Positions 2,764-18,051 of a DNA stretch of 64,000 bases are shown here, piece after piece. Source of the stretch: an uncultured bacterium (GTDB lineage: Bacteria; Auribacterota; Erginobacteria; Erginobacterales; Erginobacteraceae); the NCBI GenBank assembly GCA_964587835.1, contig CAZPMN010000004.1, forward strand, positions 14,351 through 78,350, given 5' to 3'. Position 1 is the first letter of the stretch. Every line of letters begins with the position of its first letter. The translations under genes were made by a program, and so were the position numbers. The notes beneath the pieces are model-generated. The model was not told the origin of the DNA. It searched no databases and was given only the letters and a program-made list of their open reading frames with translations.

Positions 2764-3231
2764 ATGGGGTTATTCTCCTCGAATGTCGTCCTCCTCACCA
2801 TCCTTCTCCGGCTTTTGACCGACACCTCTCTGGCCGGCTTGGAGCGGGATCAATTCATCCAGGAAGGCCGGTACTGGCGCCAGCGCGCCCAGTCGGCCCC
2901 CCGCGCTTCCTACCGGAAGATCCACTTTTACGAGAAATCCCTGGCTGCCGACCCGGCGGTCGGTGCCACCCACCTGGAGTTGGCTGAAGTCTATTACGAA
3001 CTGGCCATTTCTTACGGGCATCGGGACCTCTTCGAGCGAGCCCTGGAGTCGCTCACCGCCGCCCTCGAGGTTGACCCGGGATTGGCCGCCGCTCACTACC
3101 GTCGGGGGACCATCCATTTTCTCCTCGGCGACTTCACGGCCAGCCGCCGGGAACTGGAGGCGGCCCGCCGCCTCGATCCCTCCTACCGGTCGGCCGAGAG
3201 CGGACTGCGGAGGCTGGGAGAGGTTCAATAG
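2764..3231 (+). CDS. TPR repeat protein
   Basis: TPR-like helical repeats (YYELAISYGHRDLFERALESLTAALEVDPGLAAAHYRRG...); hydrophobic N-terminus. Confidence 0.6.
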   Translation: MGLFSSNVVLLTILLRLLTDTSLAGLERDQFIQEGRYWRQRAQSAPRASYRKIHFYEKSLAADPAVGATHLELAEVYYELAISYGHRDLFERALESLTAALEVDPGLAAAHYRRGTIHFLLGDFTASRRELEAARRLDPSYRSAESGLRRLGEVQ

Positions 3232-3267
3232 TCGGGCTGTCCCGGTCCCGGAGAGCGGGTGAGAATT

Positions 3268-3945
3268 ATGCGGAAATCCCTGCAATGCTGTCAAAAGTTC
3301 TTCTCCCCCCCGGTGATTTCGGGCATTGTTTTCCTGGCGATTCTCCCTTCTCTCCGGGCCGGTCCCCCGGTCGATATCAATACCGCCGGGGTCGAGGAAC
3401 TCCAGACTCTTCCCGGGATCGGCCCCGCGCTGGCGAAGAGGATCATCATCGACCGCGAAGCTAACGGCCCCTTCCAAGAGCCTGAAAAAATAACCCGGGT
3501 CTTCGGGATCGGGGACGCCCGCTACCGGGAGATTCAGGACCTGATCACAGCCGGCCGGGTCGCGGTGCCGGTCAACCGGGCGCCCCCGCCCGACCGGGTC
3601 AACCTCAACACCGCCACCCAGGAGCAGCTGGAGACCTTGCCCGGGATCGGCCCCGTCCTTGCCCGCCGGATTATCGACTACCGGGAAAAAGAAGGCGGTT
3701 TCAAGCGGACGGAAGACCTGACGGCGGTCCGCGGGATCGGGCCCAAGACCTTTGCGAGCCTGAAAAACCTGGTTACCGTTTACGGCCAGGCCCTGGAACA
3801 AGTTGTCGCTCCCGGCGGCCCCGGGCCCCGGATCTCCGTTTCCCAGGATCTGAAGTGCTGGCGCTGCGGCCATACCTTCCAGGTGGAGGGATCCGTCAGG
3901 TCCGGGACCTGCCCCTCCTGCGGCGCCCCCTGGCGGGCCCGCTAA
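3268..3945 (+). CDS. comEA: ComEA-like DNA-binding protein with two helix-hairpin-helix modules and a C-terminal CxxC...CxxC zinc ribbon
   Basis: Two copies of the LxxLPGIGPxLAxRII HhH motif ([24 protein letters not shown]; [28 protein letters not shown]). C-terminal CWRCGH...CPSCG. RBS GGAGAG lies 13 nt upstream of ATG 3268 (the track alternative GTG is at 3259). Confidence 0.7.
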
Positions 3946-3953
3946 TAAACAAA

Positions 3954-3981
3954 GTAGGGGCGAGGCATGCCTCGCCCCTAC
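3954..3981. terminator. Perfect 28-nt palindrome (12-bp GC-rich stem, CATG loop) 9 nt after the comEA stop; candidate terminator hairpin, but without a clear U-tract
   Basis: gtaggggcgagg catg cctcgcccctac read directly at 3954-3981; downstream sequence is not T-rich. Confidence 0.35.
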
Positions 3982-4004
3982 CGCGACGATGATAATGATT
4001 TCTC

Positions 4005-4781
4005 GTGAGCGAGGTTGAGAAATACCGTTGCCTGGTAACCGCGCCGGACCTGGTTTCGGCCCGGGTCCGGCTCCGAGAGAGCAATTTGTTGGTCCAGGCG
4101 GACCGCGATCTTGCCCGGGAGGCCCGTTCGGTCCTCGGGCGGCGTCGGGGCGAGATTGAGGAGTATCTGTACCGGAATCCGGAGTGGGGCAGGAGTATGG
4201 TACCTATCCCGGAGCGGGGCGATGCTCCGGAAATAGTCAGGGCGATGTCCCGGGCCTCCGCGGCCTGCGGGGTCGGGCCGATGGCGACCGTGGCCGGCGC
4301 CCTGGCCTGGTTCGTGGGGCGGGAACTCTCCGCCCGTTCCGGCGAGGTAATCGTCGAGAACGGGGGCGATATCTACCTGGACCGTCGCCGAGAGAGGACG
4401 ATCCTGGTCTGGCCCGGGTCCGGGGAAATTTTTCCGGTCCGGGTCGGAATTAAAGTCCCCGTTTCTTCCTTACCGGCCGGGGTGGCGGCCTCTTCGGGCT
4501 CCTTCGGCCGGTCCTTAAGCTGGGGGAAGGTGGCGGTGGCGGTGGTGGTGGCGGTTGATTCACTGATTGCTGACGGAGCGGCTACTGCACTGGGAAATCG
4601 GGTCCCTGACGCCGCCGAGGCGACAATGGAAACCGCCCTGGAGTCGGTGATGGCCATCCCCGGCGTGACCGGGGGCCTGGTCCTCTGCCGGGGGATTCTG
4701 GCCGCTCGGGGGGATATCGAACTGGTCGACCTGGCCGCGGGGTCAGGGAAACAAGATACTTTGCGGGATGAGGGGAACTGA
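4005..4781 (+). CDS. Conserved hypothetical protein (resembles the UPF0280/ApbE-like family; assignment tentative), GTG start
   Basis: Gly/Ala-rich core (ACGVGPMATVAGALAWFVGREL...VENGGDIYL). Codon usage is consistent with neighbours. GTG at 4005. Confidence 0.45.
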   Translation: MSEVEKYRCLVTAPDLVSARVRLRESNLLVQADRDLAREARSVLGRRRGEIEEYLYRNPEWGRSMVPIPERGDAPEIVRAMSRASAACGVGPMATVAGALAWFVGRELSARSGEVIVENGGDIYLDRRRERTILVWPGSGEIFPVRVGIKVPVSSLPAGVAASSGSFGRSLSWGKVAVAVVVAVDSLIADGAATALGNRVPDAAEATMETALESVMAIPGVTGGLVLCRGILAARGDIELVDLAAGSGKQDTLRDEGN

Positions 4782-4807
4782 AGGCAGAAATTAGTAAAAA
4801 AAATCTG

Positions 4808-4835
4808 GTGACAATCCCTCTCTCCGTGGTATGCT
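4808..4835 (+). promoter_or_regulatory. Candidate sigma70-type promoter (GTGACA-N16-TGgTATGCT, extended -10) in the lower-GC spacer upstream of the 4967 gene
   Basis: Read at 4808-4835. Followed by RBS AAGGAG 8 nt before ATG 4967. Confidence 0.3.
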
Positions 4836-4966
4836 TTAATTACGGGGGATTAGGCTATTTTCTTCTCGGGATTATGCCGATCCAGGTAAAGGGAAATGGT
4901 CTGAATCAGATTTAATCGCCCCGGCATAATTTTAATTTCCAGATACTCAGAAAAAGGAGCAGGGCC

Positions 4967-7213
4967 ATGTCAGGATCTGCCAGGCACCTCCGGTCAACCA
5001 GCCGTGCCCTCTGGGCTGTCACCTCGCTTTGCTTGACTCTCATTCTCCTTCATCCCGGGGGAGCGCGGGGTCAAGCATTAATCAACGAAGGTTTCGACGC
5101 CTGGCCGACCAAGCCCGCCGGCTGGACTTTCAACGGCATCGCCGACGGCGATATATATACCACGGCGACGAATTATGGCCTGGCCTCTCCATCGCTCAAG
5201 CTGGATGCGAGCGGTGATTATATCACCACCGCCTCCTTCGCCGATCCCCAGGAGCTCTCCTTCTGGATCAAGGGGCAGGGGACCGCCGGATCGAGCAGTC
5301 TCCTGGTCGATGAATACTATTTCCCTAATTGGAACCGGATGACCGAGATCGTCCCCCTGCCCCTGACGGGTACGGATATCTCCGGCCTCCTCTTCAACCC
5401 TTCCGCCACCCTGGTCCGGTTCAGTTACAATCAGGATACCGGCGACCTGGCCTTTGACGATGTCCTGGTAACCGGCCTGGCCCCGACCCCCACGGCCTCC
5501 CCCACCCCCACCCTGACCCCGGATATCTACACCTCGCCTACCGCGAGCCCGACTCCACCGGTTATTTGCGAGGGCTTTGACGATTTCAAGGAACCGAACT
5601 GGGTGGTTCCGGCCGGCTGGACCTTCGTTGACATCACCGACAACTGGACGCAATCAGGGTATTATGGTGTGGCCTCTCCTTCGGTCAAGCTGGACAGCTC
5701 GGAACAGATCCTCTATACCGATACGATTTACCGTCCTTCCGAATTTACCTTCTGGTTGAAGGGTCAGGGCTCGGCCGGCAGCTGCACACTCTTTATTGAC
5801 GAATATTATTTCGGCTCGCCCGACGGCTGGTCGGAAGTCACGGCGATCAGTCTCTTCAATACCTGGTCGGCGGGGACCGTTCTTGGGCCCTATCCGCTGG
5901 ATTATCTGACCACCGAATTGTGGTTTTCCTTCCTTAGGGATGACGGCACCGACTGGACCCTGGCCCTGGACGATGTCTGTATCTACCAGGCCGAGGCCTC
6001 TCCCACGGTCACTCCGCCACCGCCGCCGTCCCCTTCGCCCACCCGGACCCCGCTACCCCCCACGCCCACCCCGATCTCCCGGCCCGGGCCGATCACCGGG
6101 CGGGTTTATGATCGGGTGACCGGAGTCGGGATTGCCAACGTCTATGTGGTGGCCCTGCCGGTGGACGCTCCCCGCCCGGACGGGGACCTGACCGACTCCC
6201 GCGGATACTACCGGATTGACGGTCCCCCCGGGGGGACGCTGGACGCCGGGATTTATAAGGTTTTCTGCTCCGCGGTCGAGGGTTTCGGGATCCGCCGCTA
6301 CCGGGACCAGTTTTACAACCAGAAAGACAGCGTGGAGGTGGCGGACCTGGTTGCTTCCAACAGCGCCGGCATCAACTTTCCGCTATATCGGGTTGGAGTC
6401 TATCCGACTCCGACCCTGCCCCCTTCCCCTCCGCCCACCCCGACTCCCATCCTGCGCATCTATACGGTCCGGGTTCTCAGCGGAGACTACGACGGAGACG
6501 GGTCGGCGGAGATCGCCGTCTTCCGACCTGCTTCGGGGTTCTGGGCGGTGCGGGGTTTAACCCGGGCCTATTACGGCCGTTCGGGCGATATCCCGGTCAG
6601 CGGGGATTATACCGGCGACGGTCTGTCGGAGATCGCCGTCTTCCGGCCTTCCTCCGGCCTCTGGGCGGTGAGGACGATCACCCGGTGTTATTACGGCCGT
6701 TCAGGAGATATCCCGGTCCCCGGAGATTACGACGGGGACGGGACGGCGGATGTCGCCGTCTTCCGCTCCTCCTCGGGGCTCTGGGCGATTCGAGGATTGA
6801 CCCGAGCTTACTTCGGCCGGGACGGGGACCATCCCATCCCCGGCGATTACAGCGGGGACGGGCAGTCCGATCTGGCCGTCTTCCGCGGTTCCTACTACGG
6901 CCTCTGGGCGGTTCGAGGATTGACCCGAGCTTATTTCGGCCGGGGCGGGGATCATCCCATCCCCGGCGATTACAGCGGGAACGGGCAGGCCGATCTGGCC
7001 GTCTTCCGCGGCACCTACGGGCTCTGGGCGGTCCGGGGATTGACCCAGATATATCACGGTCAGGAAGGCGATATCCCGGTCCCGGCCGGCTACCGCGGGG
7101 CGGTTTCCGCGGAAATCGCCGTCTTTCAGGAAAAGACCGGCCTCTGGAAGATCCGGGGCGTGACCCGGGTTTATTTCGGTCGTCCCGGGGCCGACCTCCC
7201 GGCGACCAGGTGA
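4967..7213 (+). CDS. Large secreted modular protein: signal peptide, two copies of a ~140-aa unknown domain, Pro/Thr linkers, a CarboxypepD_reg-like domain, and 6 FG-GAP-like ~40-aa repeats
   Basis: N-terminal signal peptide (LWAVTSLCLTLILLHPGGARG). Internal duplication (EGFDAWPTKPAGWTF...FWIKGQG... versus EGFDDFKEPNWVVPAGWTF...FWLKGQG...). Linkers PTPTASPTPTLTP. ITGRVYDRVTGVGI motif. Repeats GDYDGDGxxEIAVFRPSSGLWAVRGLTRAYYGRSGDIPVP x6. Confidence 0.8.
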   Translation: MSGSARHLRSTSRALWAVTSLCLTLILLHPGGARGQALINEGFDAWPTKPAGWTFNGIADGDIYTTATNYGLASPSLKLDASGDYITTASFADPQELSFWIKGQGTAGSSSLLVDEYYFPNWNRMTEIVPLPLTGTDISGLLFNPSATLVRFSYNQDTGDLAFDDVLVTGLAPTPTASPTPTLTPDIYTSPTASPTPPVICEGFDDFKEPNWVVPAGWTFVDITDNWTQSGYYGVASPSVKLDSSEQILYTDTIYRPSEFTFWLKGQGSAGSCTLFIDEYYFGSPDGWSEVTAISLFNTWSAGTVLGPYPLDYLTTELWFSFLRDDGTDWTLALDDVCIYQAEASPTVTPPPPPSPSPTRTPLPPTPTPISRPGPITGRVYDRVTGVGIANVYVVALPVDAPRPDGDLTDSRGYYRIDGPPGGTLDAGIYKVFCSAVEGFGIRRYRDQFYNQKDSVEVADLVASNSAGINFPLYRVGVYPTPTLPPSPPPTPTPILRIYTVRVLSGDYDGDGSAEIAVFRPASGFWAVRGLTRAYYGRSGDIPVSGDYTGDGLSEIAVFRPSSGLWAVRTITRCYYGRSGDIPVPGDYDGDGTADVAVFRSSSGLWAIRGLTRAYFGRDGDHPIPGDYSGDGQSDLAVFRGSYYGLWAVRGLTRAYFGRGGDHPIPGDYSGNGQADLAVFRGTYGLWAVRGLTQIYHGQEGDIPVPAGYRGAVSAEIAVFQEKTGLWKIRGVTRVYFGRPGADLPATR
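6482..7213 (+). repeat. Six tandem ~120-nt (40-aa) FG-GAP-like coding repeats (GDYxGDG..AVFRPSSGLWAVRG.TR.YFGR.GD.PVP)
   Basis: Periodicity visible directly at protein and DNA level. The same module recurs at 9672-10421 in the next gene. Confidence 0.7.
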
Positions 7214-7322
7214 GTTCCCGGCGCGCCCCAGCTATATTTGGCGGGGGTTCGGTATTGCCGTTCAGGAAGTCGGCTATGGAGCAGTCGCGGCCTCGCAAGG
7301 AACGACCAGAGGAGAGCTAATT

Positions 7323-10300
7323 ATGAATCGATCTCGGATTAAGAAGAAGGCGATTAGGTCTCTGGCCGCCCTGGCGGTCGCCTCTATCTTGACTTTTTCC
7401 CCGGGTCTGGCTGCTGCTCAGGCTGATATCCTCCCCTTCCAACCGGGCGACACCCTGGAGGAGATCCGCTACAAGATAGATTACAACGGTTACAGCTTCA
7501 CCGTGGAAGAGAACCGGATCTTTGGCTTGCCCGCCGAGGAGAAGGCTGCCCTCTTCAGCCGCCACCTTCCCCTCCATCCCCGTCGCTACAGTGTCAACGA
7601 CGAGATCGGGCCTCTGGCTCGGCATCTGGAAAAACAAGCGCTTCCCGATAGTTTCGACTGGCGGGATTACAACGGTACCGGTCGGGACTATATCGGGCCG
7701 GTCCGGGACCAGGGCAACTGCGGATCCTGTTACGCCTTCGGCGCGGCGGCCGCCGCCGAGGGTACCTATAACTACGCCAAGGGAAGATTCGGCGACAACC
7801 GGGCGGAATTCTCCGAGGCCTTCATCGCTTTCTGCCTGGACGACCATTACGAAGGATTCGCCGGCTGCGGCGGGGCCGATTACGACTACGATGAGCTGCA
7901 GGCCCTGGTCGATTACGGGATCTGCAGCGCCGCCGAATATCCCTATATGGATTATCAACAGCTCTGCCCTTTCGGCACCTACCCGGAGCTGACCAAGTTC
8001 AACTCCTGGCACCGGATCCCCTGCGGCGACATCGAAGCGATCAAGACTGCGATTATGACCTACGGGGTGGTCGATGCCGCAGTGTATGTCGGGGAGGCCT
8101 TCCAGGCTTACGCCAGCGGGGTTTACGAGGATGAGAATACCGACTGCTACTCCTCCCCCTGTTACTACACCCCGACCAACCACGCAATATCCCTGGTCGG
8201 CTGGGACGACAACCCCCCGGAGGGGGGAGGGGGGTGTTGGATTCTGCGCAACTCCTGGGGAGAGGATTGGGGCGAGGACGGATATATGCGGTTGCGCTAT
8301 GACGCCGCCCGGGTCTCCTGCGAGTGCTCCTATCTGATCTACGAGGAACCCCGGGGCGGCCCGCTTAGAATCGCCACCTTCAATGTCAGCGTCTGGGGAT
8401 CGATCCCTGGGGTGGAGACGAAGAGAACCTTCCAGGGCCTGTTACCGGACATCGCCCTCTTACAGGAGTGGGGGATGGCCGACGGGGCCCACCTGGGTTA
8501 CGTCGAGGAAGCCTTTGGACCGGATTTTTACTACTATCTTGGCTGGGCTCCCGGGGCCGCGATCAACCGGGAGCAGAATAACGGGGTGGTCAGCCGGTGG
8601 TTCATTCAGACCTGCGGGGACTGGCGGGATCCGACCGGGCCGTCCAACCGGGCCGCCTTCGCCTGGGCTGAGATCGACCTTCCCGGGCAGAACGATCTGC
8701 TGGCCGTCTCCGTACACCTGAAGGCGGGAGACTCCCTGGACGAGCGGGCCGAACGGGAAGCACAGGCCAACGCGATCAAGGACTATGTGGAAGATTACCA
8801 GACCGCCACGGGCTTTGACGGTTATGTCGTGGTCGCGGGGGACCTGAATTTTATGAGCATCGTCCAGGACGCGGCCGCCCTTTCCGTTTTTGAGAGTTTC
8901 CTCGAGGCAACCGATCATCGCCCGGCCGATCACACAGGCAACCAAAATACCAACTCCAACCGGGAAAGGCCTTACGACTGGCTGATGCCCAACGCATTGC
9001 TCAACAGCAGACATGCCGATCTGACCATCGGCAGCGGCGATTATATCTACCCGGAAGGGCTCGTCTTCGATAGCGACGTCTTCTGGTTCGAGGGGGGGGC
9101 TCCTTACCCGGCTCCGGCCTACGGCACCGAACTCTGGAACCTGCCCCCGGTCCGTTACGGAGACAGCCACAGCGGGGTGACCGACCATATGGCGGTGATG
9201 AAGGCGTTCGAGGCCCTGCCCGAACCCACTCCAACCCCGCTGGCTACCCGGACCCCACAGCTGGCGCCCACCCCCGTGGCGGTGCTGGGGCCGATCCGCG
9301 GTCGGGTCTATGACCGGGTGACGGGGGCGGGGATTTCCGGGGTTCATGTGCTGGCGTTGGGAAGCGGGGGGAGCGCGGGCGGATTATCCGGATCCAACGG
9401 CTGGTACCAGACCCGGGACCTGAGCGCCGGAACCTACGTCGTCTACGCCGACACCTTCGGCCAGCCCGATTACCGCCCGCAGTATTACGACCAGAAAGAT
9501 GAAGAGGGTCAGGCCACCCTGGTCGTTTCCAATTCCTCAGGAATCAATTTTCCGCTCTACCGTCGTTGGGCTTATCCCACCCCACCGCCGCCTCCCACCC
9601 CCCCCCGAGGTCCCTCGCCGACACCGCCTCCGCCGCCGACCCCGGACTGGCTTCCCTCCTGGATTGACAGTGCCGATTATGATGGCGATGGGGTCAGCGA
9701 GATCGGGATCTTCCGCCCCTCCAGCGGGCTCTGGGCGATCCGGGGCCTGACCCGGGTTTATTTCGGGAGGTCCGGTGACCTGCCCGTTCCGGGAGATTAT
9801 ACCGGGGATGGGACCTCCGACATCGCCGTCTTCCGGCCCTCCTCCGGCCTCTGGGCGATCCGGGGTTCGACCCGCGCGTATTTTGGCCGCCGCGGCGATC
9901 TGCCGGTCCCGGGGGACTACGGCTCCGCCGGCCGGGCCGGTATCGCCGTCTTCCGGCCCTCGTCAGGGCTCTGGGCGATCCGGAGTTTGACCCGGATTTA
10001 TTTCGGCCGTTCCGGCGATCTCCCGGTGCCCTATAATGAAAGCGGGGAGAAGAAGATAGCGGTCTTCCGGCCCCCATCCGGCCTCTGGGCGGTCCGGGGA
10101 TCAACCCGGGTTTACTTCGGTCGTTCCGGTGATATCCCGGTTCCCGGCCTGGCCACCAACCCCTCCGGTACGGTGCAGCTGGGATTTTTCCGGGAGGCAT
10201 CGGGCCTCTGGGCGGTTCGGGAAACAACCAGGGTTTATTACGGACGATCCGGCGACCGGCCGCTAGTGGTCAACCCTGTCGGACCGGTCCAGCTGGGAGT

Positions 10301-10421
10301 CTTCCGGGATGGGTCGGGGCTGTGGGCGATCCGGGGGACGACTCGGGCTTACTTCGGCCGGTCCGGCGATCTGCCGGTCTCCGGGCTGTCCATCAACCCC
10401 TCAGCCGCCAGCAGTCTTTAA
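7323..10421 (+). CDS. Secreted multidomain protein: papain-like C1A cysteine peptidase, an endonuclease/exonuclease/phosphatase (EEP) domain, a CarboxypepD_reg-like domain, a Pro-rich linker, and ~6 FG-GAP-like repeats
   Basis: Signal peptide (LAALAVASILTFSPGLAAAQA). C1 motifs QGNCGSCYAFGAAAAAEG (Cys), NHAISLVGWDD (His), WILRNSWGEDWGEDGYMRL (Asn/Trp). EEP motifs LRIATFNVSVWGS, VVAGDLNF, GVTDHMAV. IRGRVYDRVTGAGI. Repeats as in the previous gene. Confidence 0.85.
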   Translation: MNRSRIKKKAIRSLAALAVASILTFSPGLAAAQADILPFQPGDTLEEIRYKIDYNGYSFTVEENRIFGLPAEEKAALFSRHLPLHPRRYSVNDEIGPLARHLEKQALPDSFDWRDYNGTGRDYIGPVRDQGNCGSCYAFGAAAAAEGTYNYAKGRFGDNRAEFSEAFIAFCLDDHYEGFAGCGGADYDYDELQALVDYGICSAAEYPYMDYQQLCPFGTYPELTKFNSWHRIPCGDIEAIKTAIMTYGVVDAAVYVGEAFQAYASGVYEDENTDCYSSPCYYTPTNHAISLVGWDDNPPEGGGGCWILRNSWGEDWGEDGYMRLRYDAARVSCECSYLIYEEPRGGPLRIATFNVSVWGSIPGVETKRTFQGLLPDIALLQEWGMADGAHLGYVEEAFGPDFYYYLGWAPGAAINREQNNGVVSRWFIQTCGDWRDPTGPSNRAAFAWAEIDLPGQNDLLAVSVHLKAGDSLDERAEREAQANAIKDYVEDYQTATGFDGYVVVAGDLNFMSIVQDAAALSVFESFLEATDHRPADHTGNQNTNSNRERPYDWLMPNALLNSRHADLTIGSGDYIYPEGLVFDSDVFWFEGGAPYPAPAYGTELWNLPPVRYGDSHSGVTDHMAVMKAFEALPEPTPTPLATRTPQLAPTPVAVLGPIRGRVYDRVTGAGISGVHVLALGSGGSAGGLSGSNGWYQTRDLSAGTYVVYADTFGQPDYRPQYYDQKDEEGQATLVVSNSSGINFPLYRRWAYPTPPPPPTPPRGPSPTPPPPPTPDWLPSWIDSADYDGDGVSEIGIFRPSSGLWAIRGLTRVYFGRSGDLPVPGDYTGDGTSDIAVFRPSSGLWAIRGSTRAYFGRRGDLPVPGDYGSAGRAGIAVFRPSSGLWAIRSLTRIYFGRSGDLPVPYNESGEKKIAVFRPPSGLWAVRGSTRVYFGRSGDIPVPGLATNPSGTVQLGFFREASGLWAVRETTRVYYGRSGDRPLVVNPVGPVQLGVFRDGSGLWAIRGTTRAYFGRSGDLPVSGLSINPSAASSL
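9672..10421 (+). repeat. ~6 tandem FG-GAP-like 40-aa coding repeats, homologous to 6482-7213
   Basis: ADYDGDGVSEIGIFRPSSGLWAIRGLTRVYFGRSGDLPVP and following units. About 75% nt identity to the units in the upstream gene. Confidence 0.7.
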
Positions 10422-10543: not shown

Positions 10544-11308
10544 ATGATCACCATCGCACATCGAGGGTTTTCCGCGGCCGCACCTGAAAATACGCTGGCG
10601 GCCTTCAGCAGGGCGATCCAGGCGGGATCGGATCTGGTCGAGATGGATCTTCGGCTCAGCCGGGACGCTCAGGTGATAGTTTTTCACGATCGCGAGCTTG
10701 ACCGGACCACCGATGGCGAAGGGCCGGCGGGGGAGAGGACCCTGGCCCAATTGAAGGAACTGGACGCCGGTTCCTGGTTCTCGCCGGAATTTGCCGGCGA
10801 GAAGATCCCTACCCTGGATGAGGTGCTGGAACTCTTCGCGCCGACCCGGACTGGGCTTTACCTGGAGCTGAAGATCGACCGGGGAGAAGAAAACGTTCGG
10901 GAGGAGCTGGTACCCCGGGTTCTGAATGTCCTGGCCGGCAGAGCGGTTCCGGAGCGGCTGTTTCTGGCTTCCTTTGATCATCCCGCTCTCCGCCTGGTTC
11001 GTTCCCTGGGCCCGGGACTCCCGACCGGCTTGATCTTCGGGGAGAAAGAGATCTGGGATCTTCTTCCCACGGGGGAACTGACCGGGCTGGATGTGCTCTC
11101 CGCCCGCTGGAATATTGTTACCGCCGCCCGGGTTGAAAAGGCCCGGAGGGCGGGGAAGGAGGTCTGGGCCTGGACCGTCAACCGGCGGGCGGAACTGGAT
11201 TCAGTCCGGGCCGCCGGGGTAGATGGGGTGGCCGGCAACGACCCGGACTGGCTCCGGAGGAATATTATCCTGCCAGATGAAAATTCACCACCGAGGAAAG
11301 GCAAATGA
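10544..11308 (+). CDS. ugpQ: Glycerophosphodiester phosphodiesterase (GDPD family)
   Basis: MITIAHRGFSAAAPENTLAAFSRAIQAGSDLVEMDLRLSRDAQVIVFHDRELDRTTDG is the classic GDPD N-terminal HR(G)...E.D...D...V.HD signature. An in-frame ATG sits after the terminator; the track ORF 10322.. extends upstream through the terminator. Confidence 0.8.
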   Translation: MITIAHRGFSAAAPENTLAAFSRAIQAGSDLVEMDLRLSRDAQVIVFHDRELDRTTDGEGPAGERTLAQLKELDAGSWFSPEFAGEKIPTLDEVLELFAPTRTGLYLELKIDRGEENVREELVPRVLNVLAGRAVPERLFLASFDHPALRLVRSLGPGLPTGLIFGEKEIWDLLPTGELTGLDVLSARWNIVTAARVEKARRAGKEVWAWTVNRRAELDSVRAAGVDGVAGNDPDWLRRNIILPDENSPPRKGK

Positions 11309-12660
11309 GAAAGATATTATTCCTGCTGCTGATCGGGGGGTTGATCTTCACGTCCTCCGCCGCTTCCCAGACCCGCTGGATGCGGCTCCATCCCGACGTT
11401 TCCTGGCGGTACCTGGAGCGCTGGGAGAAGGAGCACCAGTGGCTGACGCCGGCCCGGGCCGGCCGGCTCCACTTCCAAAAGCACGAAGTGGGGAGGGCGC
11501 GCCAATTGCTGGAGGAGGCGGTGAAAGAGGGAGCCGGGGACGGGCGACTGCTCTATGAACTTGGTTACAGCTGCCGTCTCCAGGGTGATGATGAGGCTGC
11601 CCTCGGCTATCTTCGGCAGGCTGCCCAAGCGCTGGCCCGGGATAATCCCGGCCACCTCTATCATTTCAACGCCCTCTATCTCTCCGGGATAATCCTCGAA
11701 GAGAGCGGGGATGAGGAAGAGGCCCTGGCCCTTTATTCCTCCGCGCTCGAACTCCGGCCGGAGATATCCGCTCTCCGTCACCGCCGGGCCTATCTCCTGG
11801 CCCGAAAGGGGGAATCGTCCGCTGCCCGGAAGGAGATCGGGCGGCTCCTGGAACAGGAGCCGGAATCGGGAACCGCCCTCTACCTGGCCGGTCTTCTGGC
11901 CCTGGAAGACGAAGACTACTCGACCGCCGAGACGTATCTGGAGAGGGCCCTTCAGGCCGGGTTTGATCCAGCCCCGACCCACTACGCCCTGGGGCGGCTG
12001 GCTGCTCTCCGGGATGATCCTGCCCGGGCCTTCCGGCAATACGAGAGCGCGCTGGCGGCCGATCCGCACCATCGGGATGCGCTGATAGCAGTGGCCAATC
12101 TCTCTTACCGGGAAGACGACCTGGAACGGGCGAGGGAGTATTTTGGGCTTCTCTCCGAACTGGAGCCGGACCGGGCCCGCTGGCACTACAATCTGGGCGT
12201 GATCTACCGGGATCTCGGGTTGAGCGATCTCTCCCGGCGTTCCTTGGACGAGGCCCGGCGCCTCGATCCGGATATTCTCTCCTCATCCCGGAGGGCGGGG
12301 GAGGATTCCGAACTGCTGGCCCGGGCGGGGGAGAGGCTGGAAGCGGGGGAGTACCGGGAGGCGGCCCAACTTTACCGACAGTCCCTGGCCGAGGACCCAT
12401 TCTTTATCCCCGCCCATTTCAACCTGGCGGTCGCCTACCGCCGGACCCGGCAGGGGAGGAGATCCCTCCGGCAGTACGAGCGGCTGCTGAGGATCGAACC
12501 CGATTACAGCCCGGCTCGTCTCAATGCCGGGATTATCGCGGTGGAACTGAAGGATCGTCCGTCTGGCGCCCTCCACCTCAGGAGATACCTAAACCTGGAA
12601 CCGGATTCTCCCCAGGCCGATCTCGCCCGGCGCTATCTCCGCGATATGCGCGGCTGGTAA
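11305..12660 (+). CDS. Secreted TPR repeat protein
   Basis: Signal peptide MRKILFLLLIGGLIFTSSAASQ; multiple TPR units (ALYSSALELRPE..., AFRQYESALAADPHH..., ARLNAGIIAVE...). Confidence 0.7.
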   Translation: MRKILFLLLIGGLIFTSSAASQTRWMRLHPDVSWRYLERWEKEHQWLTPARAGRLHFQKHEVGRARQLLEEAVKEGAGDGRLLYELGYSCRLQGDDEAALGYLRQAAQALARDNPGHLYHFNALYLSGIILEESGDEEEALALYSSALELRPEISALRHRRAYLLARKGESSAARKEIGRLLEQEPESGTALYLAGLLALEDEDYSTAETYLERALQAGFDPAPTHYALGRLAALRDDPARAFRQYESALAADPHHRDALIAVANLSYREDDLERAREYFGLLSELEPDRARWHYNLGVIYRDLGLSDLSRRSLDEARRLDPDILSSSRRAGEDSELLARAGERLEAGEYREAAQLYRQSLAEDPFFIPAHFNLAVAYRRTRQGRRSLRQYERLLRIEPDYSPARLNAGIIAVELKDRPSGALHLRRYLNLEPDSPQADLARRYLRDMRGW

Positions 12661-12712: not shown

Positions 12713-12754
12713 TTTTAAATTCTCCCGGCCCTGACGGGCCGGGAGAATTTAAAA
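12713..12754. terminator. Bidirectional rho-independent terminator between convergent genes
   Basis: Perfect 15-bp stem aaattctcccggccc tgac gggccgggagaattt, flanked by tttt on the left and aaaa on the right. It directly abuts the stop (12755-12757) of the minus-strand nuclease gene. Confidence 0.75.
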
Positions 12755-14536
12755 TCATTCGTACTCGGCGGCGGCCCGGGCCTCCTCCTCGGAATCAACG
12801 TACTCCATTGTCCGGATCGAGGAGTCGCCCATGATCTCCGATTTCAGGGGACAGGTCTCGAGGATATCACAGTTGCGGCAGTACTTGTTCTTCTTCGGCG
12901 GGAAGTGAGGGCTCTCCTCTCCGGCCGGGGGAGGGGATTCCTGGTAGAGCCGGACCTTTTCCTTGATCTCGGCCGCCACCGAGTCGATCGCCGCCACCAC
13001 CTCCGGGATGTCTTCCTCTCTCCGGGTGGTGACCATCCGCTCATCGAAGTTGGTCATCAGCAGGGAGAGCTGCTTGATCTTCAAGCCGAAAAGCGTCTGA
13101 CAGGCCCAGAAGTAGATGGTCAGCTGATCGTCCTCATCGACCGCCTCCTGGCTCCTTCTGGTCGGCTCGGTCTTGTAATCCAGGATCTCGTAGGTGCCGT
13201 CGTCCAGTTCGTCGATCCGGTCGATGAATCCGGTCATCACCGCGTTTTTTCCCAGAGGGACCTCGAAATAAGCTTCAATCGCCCAGGCCGGCTTGAATTT
13301 TCCGTCGGCGCAGTAGTGTCGATGGTAGCGGGTGATCTGGTCCACCCCCTGTTGGTAATATTTTTCCTTCTCCGCCTCGTCCCGGTACCCTTCCAGGTGG
13401 TTGTTAAAAGCCTCATCCCAGAGGGTGAGCAGGTGCTTGAGCGACCCCTTCCGATCCCCCTGGGGATCGTAATAGTTCTCAAAAGCCTCGTGGATCGCGG
13501 TGCCGAAGGAGAAGAAGGGTTTGGCTACCCGGCTGAAGCGGCCGTCGAGGTAGGAGCTTTTCCAGGCCCGGGGACAGCGCTTGTAGAGACTGAGTTTGGA
13601 ATAACTGAGCCGGAGTCGTTCCCGGAAGACTTCCGGGGTCTCGTCGGCCACCTCCCGCGGGGTTACCGGCCAGGCCGGGCAGACCTCCAGGTATTCGCAG
13701 GTGCTGCAGAGGGCCCCTTTTTCGGCCAGGGCCGCCGGATCATCCCGCCGCCGGAGTGCGGGAATGATCCGTCCCAGGAGCCCGAGGAGGGGATCGCGGC
13801 CCTTGGCCAGGGCGGCGATATTCTCGGCGGTCTCGTCGATCAGGCTGGAGACCTGCTTGATATCCTCGGCCGTCGGCGTGACCGTTACCTTCCGATTGGC
13901 CCGGAGAAAGTAGAAGCTGACCTTCGATACTTTCCCCTCCAGCCTCTTGTGGGCATTCGCCCCCAAATAAATGATGATCGCCTGGGGGTCCCGGGCGAGT
14001 TCAACCGGTTCTAATACGTTCTTGCCCGTCTTGTAGTTGATGACTTCATAGGTCCCGTCCGGGAGCAGGTCGACCCGGTCGGCCCGAGTGCTGACAAAAC
14101 ACTTTTTGGTCTTGGCCTTGACAAAGAGGCTTAAATACTTCACGTCGTGCTTCTCAGACGAGAATGTCCGGTAAAAATCGTTCAGGATACTTTCGGCCAG
14201 GGCTCGGTACTGCTTTTCCTCCCCGGCGTTCTGGTAGCCGGAAGAATCCCAGTTCCGGTCGAGGAGATTAAGCAGGAAGTCCCGGGAGGGGAGGGGAGTA
14301 TTCCCCTCCTTGTGAAAATATTCCAGGGCGTCGTGCAGAGACTTGTAAAAACTGAGACCGGCCCCAGGGCGGGGAGCGGCCGGTGCTTGGTCGATCTGGG
14401 CCAGCTTGTATTTCAGGGGACACTGAAGAAAGGTCTTGATCTTTCCCAGGGATAGCTTGATCGCCTCCATCTCTCCCTCCTTCGGGGAATAGGCGGCGGC
14501 GCCGCCGGATTTGTCTTCTACCTGTCGCCTTTCCAA
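12755..14536 (-). CDS. Tandem-duplicated PD-(D/E)XK nuclease (two Cas4/RecB/AddB-like nuclease domains, each with a 4-Cys Fe-S type motif)
   Basis: Domain 1: CPLKYK...DGTYEVINYKTGK...CSTCEYLEVCP. Domain 2: CPRAWK...DGTYEILDYKTE...CRNCDILETCP. The D..E.(D/N)YK motif and the C...CxxC..C pattern occur twice. Confidence 0.75.
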   Translation of the reverse strand: MERRQVEDKSGGAAAYSPKEGEMEAIKLSLGKIKTFLQCPLKYKLAQIDQAPAAPRPGAGLSFYKSLHDALEYFHKEGNTPLPSRDFLLNLLDRNWDSSGYQNAGEEKQYRALAESILNDFYRTFSSEKHDVKYLSLFVKAKTKKCFVSTRADRVDLLPDGTYEVINYKTGKNVLEPVELARDPQAIIIYLGANAHKRLEGKVSKVSFYFLRANRKVTVTPTAEDIKQVSSLIDETAENIAALAKGRDPLLGLLGRIIPALRRRDDPAALAEKGALCSTCEYLEVCPAWPVTPREVADETPEVFRERLRLSYSKLSLYKRCPRAWKSSYLDGRFSRVAKPFFSFGTAIHEAFENYYDPQGDRKGSLKHLLTLWDEAFNNHLEGYRDEAEKEKYYQQGVDQITRYHRHYCADGKFKPAWAIEAYFEVPLGKNAVMTGFIDRIDELDDGTYEILDYKTEPTRRSQEAVDEDDQLTIYFWACQTLFGLKIKQLSLLMTNFDERMVTTRREEDIPEVVAAIDSVAAEIKEKVRLYQESPPPAGEESPHFPPKKNKYCRNCDILETCPLKSEIMGDSSIRTMEYVDSEEEARAAAEYE

Positions 14537-14682
14537 CCTCCGGTTGAAGAGGCGAAGAATTTATAGTAGCACGGAGGAATCGCCGAAGAAAGATTAATTT
14601 GAATTGAACCGAGGAAGGATTGTGCTAATCTTATCGGCTGGCTGTGGTTTCCCTGCCGGGGCCGCCTCCGGTAACGGCTGCT

Positions 14683-16068
14683 ATGAAGGCAAATCTTCCC
14701 CACAAAAAGATTAACGCCCCCCGGGTGATCATGCTTTACTTCGCCGGGGCGATTCTGGTCGGGACGTTGTTCCTGATCCTTCCCTTCTCGACCCGCCCCC
14801 CCGGTCCGATGCATCCGGTGGACGCGCTCTTCACGGCCGCTTCCGCCGTCTGCGTGACCGGTCTGATCGTGGTCGATACCGGAACTTTTTTCACTCCCTT
14901 CGGGCAAACGGTGATTTTGATCCTGATCCAGCTCGGCGGGCTGGGGATTATGACCATGTCCACCTTCTTCCTGATCATGCTCCGGAGGCGCCTGACCCTG
15001 AAAGACCGCCTGGTCCTTAGGGACACCCTGGGGGAGAAGAAGATATCCGGCCTCCCCTCCCTGATCATCCTGATCGTCGGGATGACCGTTTTCCTGGAAA
15101 CCCTGGGGGGAATCTTCCTTTCCTGGAGGTTTTACCGGTTTTACGGATATCCCCTCGGTCGTTCCCTGGCCCATGGCTTCTTCCATTCCATTTCTGCTTT
15201 CTGCAACGCCGGTTTTGCTCTCTATTCCGACAGCCTGACTCGCTTTGCCGGCGACGGAGTGGTGATCGCGATTATGGGGGGGCTGATCCTACTCGGAGGA
15301 TTCGGTTTCGTAGTCTGGTTCAATCTGACCCATTTCTACTTCTGGCGCCGGGATCGTCTCCGCCGGGGCCAGATCCGCCTCCAGACCCGGATCGTGCTGG
15401 GAATCAGCGGGATCCTCCTGCTGGTAATGTTTTTCATCTTCCTGGGGGTGGAGTGGGATAATACCCTCCGGGGAAGATCGTTGGCGGAGAAATTGCTCTC
15501 CTCGTTCTTTCACGCCGTTACCCCCCGGACAGCCGGTTTTAATACCCTCCCGGTCTCCCGGATGCTCCCGGCAACGCTCTGGCTAATGATTATCATGATG
15601 TTTATCGGTGCTTCTCCCGGCAGTACCGGAGGCGGGATCAAGACTGTGACTTTTGCCGTGATTCTAGCCTCGGTCTATCGAATGGTGACCGGGCGCGATC
15701 AGATCCTGCTGGGAAAGAAGCGCATTGTTGAGGAGACGGCGGTCAAGGCGATCAGTATCGCCGTCCTCTCGCTGGCCCTGATCCTGACCTCGACTGGGCT
15801 CTTACTCCTGCTGGAAAGCCCCAGGGTTGGGGAGGTCTGCCGGACCGGCTATCTGGGAGAGATTTTCTTTGAGACCGTATCCGCTTTTGGGACGGTGGGA
15901 CTCTCAACCGGGGTGACCCCTGACCTGTCTTACCCGGGCAAACTGGTGATCATCGTAACGATGTTTCTCGGCCGGATCGGTCCGTTGACTCTTGCCCTCC
16001 TGGTTGGCCGGTACCGCCGATCGCGGCGGTCGATCCGCTACCCCCAGGAAGCGGTGATGGTTGGTTGA
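14683..16068 (+). CDS. trkH: Trk/Ktr-type potassium uptake membrane subunit (TrkH/KtrB family)
   Basis: Multiple M1-P-M2 repeats with selectivity-filter-like glycines (AVCVTGLIVVDTG, LIQLGGLGIMT, FCNAGFALYS, STGGGIKTVTFA). Start uncertain: track start 14644; ATGs at 14683 and 14731. Confidence 0.8.
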   Translation: MKANLPHKKINAPRVIMLYFAGAILVGTLFLILPFSTRPPGPMHPVDALFTAASAVCVTGLIVVDTGTFFTPFGQTVILILIQLGGLGIMTMSTFFLIMLRRRLTLKDRLVLRDTLGEKKISGLPSLIILIVGMTVFLETLGGIFLSWRFYRFYGYPLGRSLAHGFFHSISAFCNAGFALYSDSLTRFAGDGVVIAIMGGLILLGGFGFVVWFNLTHFYFWRRDRLRRGQIRLQTRIVLGISGILLLVMFFIFLGVEWDNTLRGRSLAEKLLSSFFHAVTPRTAGFNTLPVSRMLPATLWLMIIMMFIGASPGSTGGGIKTVTFAVILASVYRMVTGRDQILLGKKRIVEETAVKAISIAVLSLALILTSTGLLLLLESPRVGEVCRTGYLGEIFFETVSAFGTVGLSTGVTPDLSYPGKLVIIVTMFLGRIGPLTLALLVGRYRRSRRSIRYPQEAVMVG

Positions 16069-16217: not shown

Positions 16218-16904
16218 ATGAAACAATTCGTTGTTATCGGGGCCGGCCGCTTCGGTTCCGCGGTGGCCGTTACCCTGGCCCAGAAGGGGAAACAGGTGTT
16301 GGTCCTGGACAAGGATGAGCAGACGGTCCAGAGGATGAGCGAGATCGTTACCGAGGCAATGCAGATCGATGTCGCCGACCCCAGTTCACTGGCCGGTTTG
16401 GAACTAGGAGAGATGGACGTGGCCGTGGTCGGGATCGGCGGCAATCTGGAGGCCTCCATCCTGACCACCCTCCAGCTCAAGGAGATGGGGGTAAAGACGG
16501 TGGTGGCCAAGGCCAAGACCAATGCCGATAAGAAGATCCTCAGCCGGATCGGAGCCGACCGGATTGTCTTTCCGGAGCGGGATATGGGGATTCGCGTTGC
16601 CAACTCCCTGATCTCGCCGACCATATTCGACTATATCCAGGTCTCGCCCGGCTTCGGGATCGTGGAGACGAAAGTCCCTGAAGCCATCCGGGGACAGACC
16701 CTGGCCGAGGCCAATATCCGTTCCCGGTTTGGGATTGATATCGTCGCTATTCACCGCCGGGCGCCACAGCTGGACAAGAATGGACAATCGGAATTGAAAG
16801 CAACCCTCCTGATCGCTCCCGAAGCCTCCGAGGTGCTGGGGGAGAATGACAACCTGGTCATCATCGGGGAAGAGGGAAAGATCGAAAAGTTCAAATCTCT
16901 TTAA
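16218..16904 (+). CDS. trkA: Trk/Ktr NAD-binding regulatory subunit (TrkA-N plus TrkA-C)
   Basis: MKQFVVIGAGRFGSAVAVTLAQKGKQVLVLDKDEQ is a Rossmann GxGxxG fold, followed by a C-terminal TrkA-C-like region. Confidence 0.85.
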   Translation: MKQFVVIGAGRFGSAVAVTLAQKGKQVLVLDKDEQTVQRMSEIVTEAMQIDVADPSSLAGLELGEMDVAVVGIGGNLEASILTTLQLKEMGVKTVVAKAKTNADKKILSRIGADRIVFPERDMGIRVANSLISPTIFDYIQVSPGFGIVETKVPEAIRGQTLAEANIRSRFGIDIVAIHRRAPQLDKNGQSELKATLLIAPEASEVLGENDNLVIIGEEGKIEKFKSL

Positions 16905-17277: not shown

Positions 17278-18051
17278 ATGAACTCAGCGGCGGCTTATTC
17301 CGGATTCCATCATCCGGGACCGCCGACTCCGGCCGTACGGACCCTGCTGACGATCAATGTCGTCTCTTTCCTGATCGGGCAGCTGGGAGGGGAGAGGGGC
17401 TTCTACGATCTCTTCGGGCTTACGGTCCCCGACGTCTTCAGCCATTTCCGAATCTATCAGTTTGTCACCTATCTCTTCGTCCACGGCGGCACCCTCCATC
17501 TGCTCTTCAATATGCTGATCCTCTTCTTCTTCGGGAGGGCGCTGGAGGCTTACTGGGGAACCAGGTATTTTCTTCGCTACTACTTCATCTCCGGGATCGG
17601 GGCCGGGATCTGTTCAATCCCCTTTATCTGGGGGGAGGGGGTCCCGCTGGTCGGTGCCTCGGGAGCGCTCTTCGCCCTCCTGATTGCTTTTGGAGTCCTC
17701 TTTCCGGATCGAGTGGTCACCTTCCTCCTCTTTTTTGTCATCCCGGTCCGGATGCGGGCCCGGCAGATGGTGGTGATCTTCGTCGGCCTGGAACTTCTCT
17801 TCCTCCTCAATCGGGATGGGGGAGGGGGGATAGCTCACTTCGCCCACCTGGGAGGTGCCCTGGTCGGGTTTCTCTATCTGCAATGGCCCCGATGGCGGCA
17901 AAGCATCTTTTTCCGGAAGCACCCGGTCGAACCGCGGATTTCCTATCGTGAGGAGTTGGACGCCGTCCTGGAAAAACTGGCCCGGGAAGGTTGGGGGGGA
18001 TTAAGCGAGGAAGAAAGGGGTTTTCTCCACGACTCCCGGCATAATCTTTGA
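17278..18051 (+). CDS. Rhomboid family intramembrane serine protease
   Basis: Six TM segments with GASGALFALL (catalytic Ser in GxSG) and AHLGGALVGFLY (catalytic His). Confidence 0.8.
   Translation: MNSAAAYSGFHHPGPPTPAVRTLLTINVVSFLIGQLGGERGFYDLFGLTVPDVFSHFRIYQFVTYLFVHGGTLHLLFNMLILFFFGRALEAYWGTRYFLRYYFISGIGAGICSIPFIWGEGVPLVGASGALFALLIAFGVLFPDRVVTFLLFFVIPVRMRARQMVVIFVGLELLFLLNRDGGGGIAHFAHLGGALVGFLYLQWPRWRQSIFFRKHPVEPRISYREELDAVLEKLAREGWGGLSEEERGFLHDSRHNL

Follow-up and report, generated by a model that had tools for sequence, protein, structure and literature searches.

Introduction

To our knowledge, iron-sulfur (Fe-S) nucleases of the Cas4/AddB type occur as one domain, which stands by itself or is joined to a helicase or to Cas1. 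In this paper we looked at a 64,000-nucleotide stretch of DNA, here called the window, from an uncultured bacterium of the family Erginobacteraceae in the phylum Auribacterota (assembly GCA_964587835.1, contig CAZPMN010000004.1, positions 14,351 to 78,350 of the forward strand), and at one gene on its minus strand that encodes two Cas4/AddB-like domains in tandem. We found no paper that describes tandem Cas4-like proteins, and no published account of two to five Cas4/AddB-type Fe-S nuclease domains concatenated on one chain. Based on domain, fold and conservation analyses we suggest that only the C-terminal domain (C domain) of this protein is a complete nuclease and that the N-terminal domain (N domain) is most likely a module that holds or threads DNA.

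The best fold match to the window protein is ACE1, an enzyme of the Cas4 family that carries an Fe4S4 cluster, acts endonucleolytically on single-stranded DNA (ssDNA) and is unable to cut duplex DNA (PMC12094033). ACE1 and the window protein have in common a PD-(D/E)XK core with a D...D-x-K set, one N-terminal and three C-terminal Cys residues, and no helicase. However, ACE1 is a single domain of ~278 amino acids that is co-encoded and complexed with a long-A prokaryotic Argonaute (pAgo), and the identity is 12-15%; the window protein has two such domains in tandem, one of them with a degenerate active site, and no pAgo gene nearby. AddB, AdnA and AdnB (PDB 4cej, 3u44, 6ppr) resemble the window protein in their RecB-type nuclease motifs, in the four-Cys 'iron staple' and in having two nuclease domains per complex, and AddB is described as carrying an inactivated helicase domain that is retained for DNA recognition (PMC3321194). 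Yet each nuclease domain of AddAB and AdnAB is fused to an SF1 helicase or helicase-like module, on two separate subunits, whereas the window protein has no helicase module and carries both nuclease-fold domains on one chain. CRISPR Cas4 (TIGR00372/PF01930; SSO0001, PDB 4ic1) shares the fold and the Fe-S Cys pattern and gives weak profile matches on the C half, but it occurs as one domain by itself or in fusion with Cas1, not with a second Cas4-like domain, and its cas1/cas2 or CRISPR context is missing here.

Two further systems are of interest for their architecture. The C-terminal domain of RecC was reportedly recognized by Rigden in 2005 as a degenerate PD-(D/E)XK fold that is kept as an ssDNA channel. 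RecC chains (PDB 1w36, 8b1t) are among the fold matches of the window protein (E about 3e-4) and set an example of a pseudo-nuclease module by which DNA is guided to an active nuclease. In RecC the catalytic residues are gone, as are the Fe-S Cys residues, which the modules described below always keep, and the protein works within a helicase machine. Both nuclease domains of CinB, the cytoplasmic-incompatibility nuclease of Wolbachia, are said to be of the PD-(D/E)XK type. CinB is described as having two tandem nuclease domains on a single polypeptide (bioRxiv 10.1101/2025.03.04.641471). It is the toxin of a toxin-antidote pair and, unlike the window protein, has no Fe-S Cys set; its sequence and context appear unrelated. 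The nearest sequence relatives outside the family described in this paper (83-131 bits) are UvrD-Cas4-like fusions and other pfam12705 proteins, which share the Pfam family of the window protein and show full conservation of the catalytic and Cys residues, but have one nuclease domain, SF1 helicase-fused or stand-alone. A Cas4 phylogenomics survey treats only single-domain and helicase-fused forms of pfam12705 and does not mention tandem ones (Hudaiberdiev et al., 2017; PMC5704561).

Two Cas4/AddB-like domains on one chain

The window protein matches the Pfam family PF12705 (PDDEXK_1) twice, well above the gathering threshold of 22 bits. The N half scores 84.5 bits (E 1.5e-23) over profile positions 2-247 of 247 and the C half 111.1 bits (E 1.1e-31) over positions 1-247. 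Aligned to each other, the halves are colinear with 24% identity (E 1e-19), their four Cys residues are in register, and Asn145 stands opposite Asp431 (residues are counted from the Met codon at 14470). The domain hidden Markov model (HMM) parse of P0001, the database copy of the protein, is N(302)+C(394). An earlier reading of the DNA letters, made without database searches (the sequence-only reading), had proposed exactly two tandem Cas4/AddB-like domains with four Cys each, and all the motifs that it quoted are present: CPLKYK, EVINYKTG and CSTCEYLEVCP in the first domain and CPRAWK, EILDYKTE and CRNCDILETCP in the second.

Each domain has one Cys near its N-terminus and a C-x2-C-x5-C pattern near its C-terminus. 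The N-type domain extends over residues 3-268 (13667..14464, minus strand, as for all parts of the protein), and its predicted Fe-S ligands are Cys17 (14420..14422) and Cys255, Cys258 and Cys264 in CSTCEYLEVC (13679..13708). The motif III position of this domain, where a metal-binding Asp is expected from the alignment with D431, is held by Asn145 (EVI-N-YK; 14036..14038). The C-type domain, residues 284-545 (12836..13621), has the corresponding predicted ligands Cys299 (13574..13576) and Cys531, Cys534 and Cys540 in CRNCDILETC (12851..12880), and a complete RecB-type catalytic set with the motif III D-x-K at D431-Y432-K433 (13172..13180). Between the two lies a linker of residues 269-283 (13622..13666), flanked by the near-invariant residues W267, P271, R285, R287 and S-Y-S-K 289-292. 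From the ligand pattern and the fold relatives, each domain is predicted to bind a [4Fe-4S] cluster; the one-plus-three Cys set would form an 'iron staple' as in ACE1, AddB, AdnA/B, Cas4, Dna2 and EXO5.

The last part of the protein is a tail with an acidic end (residues 546-571; 12758..12835) and the conserved motif E-I-x-x-D-x-x-[LI]-R-[ST]-M-[EQ]-[YF], in which I546 and M555 are each found in 57/64 homologues. The model confidence falls below a predicted local distance difference test score (pLDDT) of 50 from residue 560 on, and disorder is predicted from about the same residue. Such a conserved tail may be a docking peptide for a partner.

The structure was predicted with AlphaFold2 (AF2) from the homologue alignment, and the result is a confident single rigid body (pLDDT 91.1, mostly >90 in the N-type domain; predicted template modeling score, pTM, 0.85), which indicates that in the model the two domains are held in a fixed relative orientation. 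The pair probably arose through internal duplication, and the conserved linker would fix its arrangement.

When the whole protein was compared with the PDB by sequence, nothing matched at E <= 1. When the AF2 model was searched with Foldseek, one domain at a time, the matches were ACE1, the AdnA nuclease domain, AddB, Dna2, Cas4 SSO0001, EXO5, RecC and MGME1, with ACE1 at the top (E 4e-9; TM relative to the target 0.68). The models of the named families all stay below their cutoffs: the AddB/RexB models match the nuclease region only (TIGR02786, 59.3 against 486.5 bits; TIGR02774, 11.2 against 718; TIGR03623, 39.1 against 299.6), and the Cas4 models reach 24.5 against 65 bits (TIGR00372) and 10 against 22.7 bits (PF01930). 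PADLOC-DB gives weak matches only, namely to Cas4 (<=31.5 bits), to the Cas4 part of the Cas1g fusion model (42.5 bits) and to PprPDDEXK (22 bits). Because of the Foldseek relatives, the NCBIfam scores far below cutoff and the weak PADLOC matches, the protein is a member of the PDDEXK_1/Fe-S 'iron staple' superfamily and is neither Cas4 proper nor AddB.

Unequal conservation of the two domains

Conservation was counted in an alignment of 64 full-length homologues. All eight Cys residues (C17, C255, C258, C264; C299, C531, C534, C540) are invariant in 64/64. So is the complete RecB-type set of the C domain: H327, E331, D417, D420, D431, Y432, K433, Q449 and Y453. The sequence-only reading had staked its proposal on the presence of catalytic residues in the second half, and these residues are those that are kept without exception.

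The N domain shows a different picture, and here the earlier claim of two nuclease domains holds for the C half and not in full for the N half; the two domains are not equivalent. D131 and K147 are nearly invariant, but His is found at the motif I position in 22/64 homologues and Gln at the motif IV position in 26/64, and the motif III acid is Asp in 24, Asn in 18, a hydrophobic residue in 14, Lys in 4 and Ser in 3. Asn occupies this position in the entire clade of the window protein and Lys in a sister group. The N domain of the window protein itself does not have the complete RecB-type motif set, with Asn145 at the motif III acid and a Q163...Y168 spacing that is one off. The same holds beyond the two-domain proteins: in all 108 N-type domains parsed from the 2- to 5-domain proteins, the four Cys residues are kept and the motif III acid varies. 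The N half also evolves faster overall: its mean pairwise identity is 31%, against 50% in the C half, and in 99.5% of 2016 pairs it is the C half that is better conserved.

As a control we used 151 single-domain relatives from the same searches, where H, D, D, K and Q are conserved at 99-100%, and so the catalytic drift of the N-type domains is not general to the fold. Judged from these alignments, constraint on the catalytic positions of the N-type domains is relaxed throughout the family.

A family of domain arrays

When separate HMMs for each half were run over all collected proteins, a simple rule was found: one to four N-type domains are followed by one C-type domain. The family, (N-type)n + C-type, and its membership criteria were defined in this analysis, and the window protein bears its marks, which are an N-type domain followed by a C-type one, the junction W...P...R-x-R-L-S-Y-S-K and the tail E-I..D..[LI]R[ST]M[EQ][YF]. 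About 70 members have two domains (530-610 amino acids) and about 15 have three (766-842 amino acids; mostly Riflebacteria/Ozemobacteraceae). One protein, P0123 (1047 amino acids), has four domains in the pattern N-N-N-C, and P0122 (1245 amino acids) and P0121 (1297 amino acids) have five, N-N-N-N-C. In these 4- and 5-domain homologues, which are encoded at loci L084, L085 and L086, every domain has its own C...CxxC...C set, and P0121 retains the D...D-x-K set in all five domains. A 3-domain homologue is likewise predicted by AF2 to be a rigid array (pLDDT 88.4, pTM 0.80).

A profile search of 1.84 billion cluster representatives yielded ~30 clusters with a complete two-domain match, as well as longer proteins with three or four matched stretches. 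Among the GTDB species representatives about 63 species carry the family, all of them metagenome-assembled genomes (MAGs). The search for orthologues of the fused architecture, which the sequence-only reading had put forward, was thus productive and went up to five domains. The hosts include PVC-group/Auribacterota (Erginobacter, Euphemobacter, Tritonobacter), Riflebacteria, CSSED10-310, Schekmanbacteria, UBP18 and an Elusimicrobia MAG, and the nearest of the proteins from these species representatives are 81-83% identical to the window protein. As to whether such proteins are a described family, they are not unique to the window and stand in the databases under generic names ('PD-(D/E)XK nuclease family protein', 'RecB family exonuclease'), but the literature search gave nothing on them. 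The domain type and chemistry are already well known; what appears undescribed is the tandem arrays, the way in which modules with decaying catalysis strictly keep their Fe-S ligands, and the repeated adjacency to ComEC that is described below.

The full-length tandem form was found on no phage or plasmid record in a tblastn search of phage and plasmid collections and an IMG/VR scan. A mobile-element origin was considered and rejected, as the matches there are distant single-domain ones and one contig-end fragment.

Some members show further peculiarities. In P0138 (1138 amino acids), P0139 (1118 amino acids) and P0154, one of which is named Hydrogenedentota, an insertion of ~450-600 amino acids, largely low-complexity or helical, interrupts the N-type domain after the nuclease core and before the C-terminal CxxC...C cluster. 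The gene for the five-domain protein P0121 is followed by a DUF1848 gene (L084, 7888..8805) with overlapping stop and start codons, a single example.

The gene and its flanking elements

The open reading frame 12755..14536 on the minus strand exists as it was first read, with 593 codons counted from a TTG start, but the protein is likely 571 and not 593 amino acids long. An ATG lies 22 codons inside, at 14470; it is immediately preceded by the ribosome-binding region AAGGAGGGAGAG (14471..14483, minus strand), which includes AAGGAGG. The 571 amino acid product is identical over its full length (100%) to P0001, which is encoded on a 124-kb NCBI contig, and the orthologues begin at the equivalent Met. 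Because of these three lines of evidence we take the coding sequence, stop codon included, as 12755..14470; ATG 14470 is probably the true start and the TTG extension to 14536 a 5' leader. Within this probable leader, between the TTG and the ATG, the GC-only palindrome GGCGGCGGCGCCGCC is found at 14492..14506, and it could form a stable hairpin close to the ribosome-binding site.

Directly 3' of the nuclease stop codon lies an intrinsic terminator (12713..12754) whose perfect 19-bp stem is closed by a 4-nt loop and bordered on either side by T/A tracts (dG -40.3 kcal/mol, z -4.8; 0/200 shuffles fold equally well). It is common to the nuclease gene and to the convergent gene of a TPR protein (11305-12660, plus strand) and is therefore bidirectional. 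On the other side are the divergent genes of TrkH (14644-16068) and TrkA (16218-16904), so that the placement of the gene between a bidirectional terminator and the trk operon was read correctly. The Pfam scan shows further upstream a small TPR protein, a rhomboid protease (17278..18051) and a TPR/peptidase-MA protein. Domain scans found no helicase domain in the tandem protein itself or in the adjacent genes, and among all Pfam-scanned neighbors, from 3.2 to 19.2 kb of the window, there is no helicase or cas gene, in line with the sequence-only reading.

Gene neighborhoods across the family

Neighbor clustering covered 63 loci. In the window's clade the order TPR protein, nuclease, TrkH-TrkA, small TPR protein and rhomboid protease is stable, and it is functionally uninformative. 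The conserved neighbors in Riflebacteria are a lipoprotein, an oligopeptidase M3, a rhomboid protease and a HEAT protein. In 16 species loci (L005-L012, L022-L063), from Auribacterota as well as from Riflebacteria, a rhomboid gene is found no more than 3-4 kb away from the nuclease gene, in differing arrangements; for want of a functional rationale this was not used as evidence.

The informative neighbor is ComEC. The nuclease gene directly adjoins it in three sublineages that have differing gene orders and are mutually 31-35% identical, which is also the distance of each from the window protein. In the first and largest one, CSSED10-310 and relatives (8 species loci), the order is pyrimidine-nucleoside phosphorylase, ComEC membrane part, ComEA, ComEC metallo-beta-lactamase (MBL) part, nuclease, DHH phosphoesterase and cytidine deaminase, and the genes from ComEC to DHH overlap or are tightly spaced. 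In the second one (L060, L062, L066) the order is Cache/GAF, nuclease, ComEC, a gene marked x, ComEA and MBL; in the third (L067) it is nuclease and ComEC. The assignments have NCBIfam support, with 155.7 bits for the MBL open reading frame on positions 438-663 of ComEC_Rec2 and 138 bits for the helix-hairpin-helix (HhH) domain of ComEA. The CSSED10-310-type ComEC is itself split into two open reading frames, a membrane part (DUF4131 + Competence) and the MBL part, with the ComEA gene between them, tightly spaced or overlapping (L046, L049, L050, L052 and L061, about 3200-8000; L003, 2463-7004).

The nuclease of locus L020 is 60% identical to that of L005, which belongs to the window's clade, and two genes (2 kb) away from the L020 nuclease gene there is a ComEA-like gene. 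The window has a homologue of this gene and of the nuclease-adjacent ComEA gene of L046, at 3259..3945 on the plus strand, ~9 kb from the nuclease gene. It encodes a ComEA-like DNA-binding protein (TIGR00426, 110.7 bits against a cutoff of 53.1; PF12836, 145.9 bits) with two HhH repeat units; at its C-terminus is an unusual CxxC...CxxC tail that resembles a zinc ribbon (...CPSCGAPW) and is also found in the L020 homologue. The gene is a possible loose functional neighbor of the nuclease and not a demonstrated part of the system.

No partner helicase recurs among the ~63 loci. In one Riflebacteria genome (L002) a divergent gene for an SNF2-family helicase with DUF3670 (3904..6726) lies directly upstream of a two-domain nuclease gene, an arrangement that does not recur. 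The family is chromosomal, and the neighborhoods examined are unlike defense islands.

Between the ComEA-like gene and the TPR gene the window also encodes, on the plus strand, two large paralogous secreted proteins (4967..7213 and 7323..10421) with many ~45 amino acid FG-GAP-like repeats (...DIAVFRPSSGLWAIRGxTRxYFG...). The second one, of 1032 amino acids, also has a papain-type C1 peptidase domain. A DNase I-like EEP (endonuclease/exonuclease/phosphatase) domain in this 1032 amino acid protein was suspected but not relied on, as Exo_endo_phos reaches 18.7 bits against a cutoff of 24.5 (residues ~345-630) and there is no PDB match.

Proposed function and alternatives

The reading that we favor is that of a stand-alone 571 amino acid enzyme in which the C domain would cut and the N domain would serve as an iron-sulfur pseudo-nuclease that handles DNA. 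From the motifs, only the C domain appears to be a complete metal-dependent nuclease (H, E, D, D-x-K, Q-x-x-x-Y). The N domain has Asn145 in place of the metal-binding Asp, and N-type domains as a class lose catalytic residues and never the Cys residues; therefore the N domain is most likely a DNA-holding or threading module. It is most likely non-cutting or barely cutting, as far as activity can be judged from residues, and it would hold or thread DNA so that the substrate is presented to the C-terminal active site. By analogy with ACE1, Cas4, AdnA and AddB, the substrate may be ssDNA, or else tailed or forked DNA that would be cut in its single-stranded arm, and cleavage would need no fused helicase. 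The weakest step is the cellular role, which would be the processing or degradation of ssDNA inside the cell. Here DNA imported through ComEC/ComEA is the most specific lead, because the nuclease gene adjoins ComEC in three deep sublineages; in the largest of them the enzyme would share an operon with a DHH phosphoesterase, flanked by pyrimidine-nucleoside phosphorylase and cytidine deaminase. In Auribacterota, the phylum of the closest named relatives, DNA catabolism has been predicted independently, through deoxyribose-phosphate aldolase in microcompartments, and some members encode type IV pili (PMC9324843).

We are fairly confident in the architecture and the pseudo-nuclease. The full composite, which joins to these the C-domain nuclease, the handling of DNA by the N domain, the processing of ssDNA and the lead toward DNA uptake, we hold to be slightly better than an even bet, and the ComEC link as applied to the organism of the window is tentative, somewhat short of even. 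Several observations weigh against the favored reading. The N domain of the window protein misses one catalytic residue only, with H46, E50, D131, K147 and Q163 retained, and Asn can still contact a metal ion, so that residual or altered activity of this domain is possible. The N-type domain keeps the D...D-x-K set in ~40% of the family members, and to judge from that set these N-type domains may be active. Moreover, the ComEC link is missing in the window's clade, whose conserved neighbors are TrkH/TrkA, the rhomboid protease and TPR proteins, and in Riflebacteria, and the ComEA-like gene 9 kb away could be a coincidence.

Another explanation is that the protein is a housekeeping end-processing nuclease of recombination and repair, similar to AddB or AdnA without the helicase module, which works with an unlinked helicase and has no role in DNA uptake. 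The AddB and AdnA nuclease domains are among the best sequence-model and fold matches, the closest relatives outside the family are UvrD-Cas4 helicase-nuclease fusions, the L002 gene is adjoined by the divergent SNF2 helicase gene, and the chromosomal, syntenic context looks housekeeping. Yet no helicase recurs as a neighbor in about 63 loci, the AddB family models stay far below their cutoffs, and ComEC and ComEA, joined in the largest group by DHH, are the only DNA-related neighbors that recur across deep lineages. We regard this explanation as rather unlikely, though it fares best among the alternatives.

A less probable option still is that both domains are active, which would make the protein a covalent two-site enzyme, comparable to AddAB and AdnAB where each site cuts one strand. 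Such an enzyme would cut both strands of a DNA end, or cut twice at a fixed spacing, and the rigid inter-domain geometry (pTM 0.85) would suit a fixed pair of sites. The residues retained in the N half (H46, E50, D131, K147, Q163) agree with this option, and so does the D...D-x-K set, which the N-type domain keeps in 24/64 homologues and which most domains of the proteins with four or five domains also keep. However, mutation of the motif III Asp inactivates RecB, AddA and AddB. In the N-type domains the catalytic positions are visibly relaxed, and the motif III acid is Asn in the window's clade and, in the sister group, Lys, which is unable to ligate the catalytic metal; the equivalent Asp is retained in 99/100 single-domain relatives.

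The protein could also serve in defense, as a nuclease similar to solo Cas4 or ACE1 by which incoming plasmid, phage or transforming DNA is restricted. Its closest solved structure, ACE1, cooperates with pAgo against invading DNA, and a position next to ComEC would suit the restriction of incoming ssDNA. In Synechococcus, a Cas4-like nuclease together with RecJ and UvrD is described as lowering the transfer of RSF1010 (PMC10653904). Nevertheless, PADLOC yields generic weak Cas4 matches only, and because of this the defense explanation is given low weight; pAgo and cas genes are absent from the neighborhoods examined, which do not resemble defense islands, the housekeeping synteny is stable within clades, and the full-length form is on no phage or plasmid record. 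Taken together, defense is a quite improbable role. Finally, that two adjacent single-domain genes were joined by an assembly or frameshift error, for which only the rarity of the architecture speaks, has next to no chance, because the uninterrupted architecture is shared by more than 60 orthologues with a conserved linker (~80 database proteins and ~63 species-level genomes from independent assemblies).

Going back to the favored pairing of a cutting C domain with a DNA-handling N domain, a more far-reaching version of it can be suggested, which we consider speculative and rather doubtful. In it the family would be the cytoplasmic nuclease partner of the ComEC/ComEA channel, in which two to five Fe-S-stapled modules thread the incoming strand. 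The N-type modules would act as spacers or rulers, while the C-type site and any active N-type sites would chop the strand into oligonucleotides of defined length. The DHH phosphoesterase and the nucleoside-catabolic enzymes would then turn these oligonucleotides into carbon, nitrogen and phosphorus. If this is true, uncultivated anaerobes would have a pathway dedicated to 'DNA as food'; alternatively, the nuclease would be a built-in brake on natural transformation.

Implications

Being small and free of a helicase, and with a prediction of high confidence, the tandem enzyme is readily testable in vitro. The family keeps four Cys residues per module while catalysis decays in all modules except the last one, and it is thus a natural experiment on what an Fe-S 'iron staple' domain does besides cutting: DNA binding, threading and possibly redox sensing. 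It may also bear on a long-standing question, which is the fate in the cytoplasm of DNA that is imported by ComEC.

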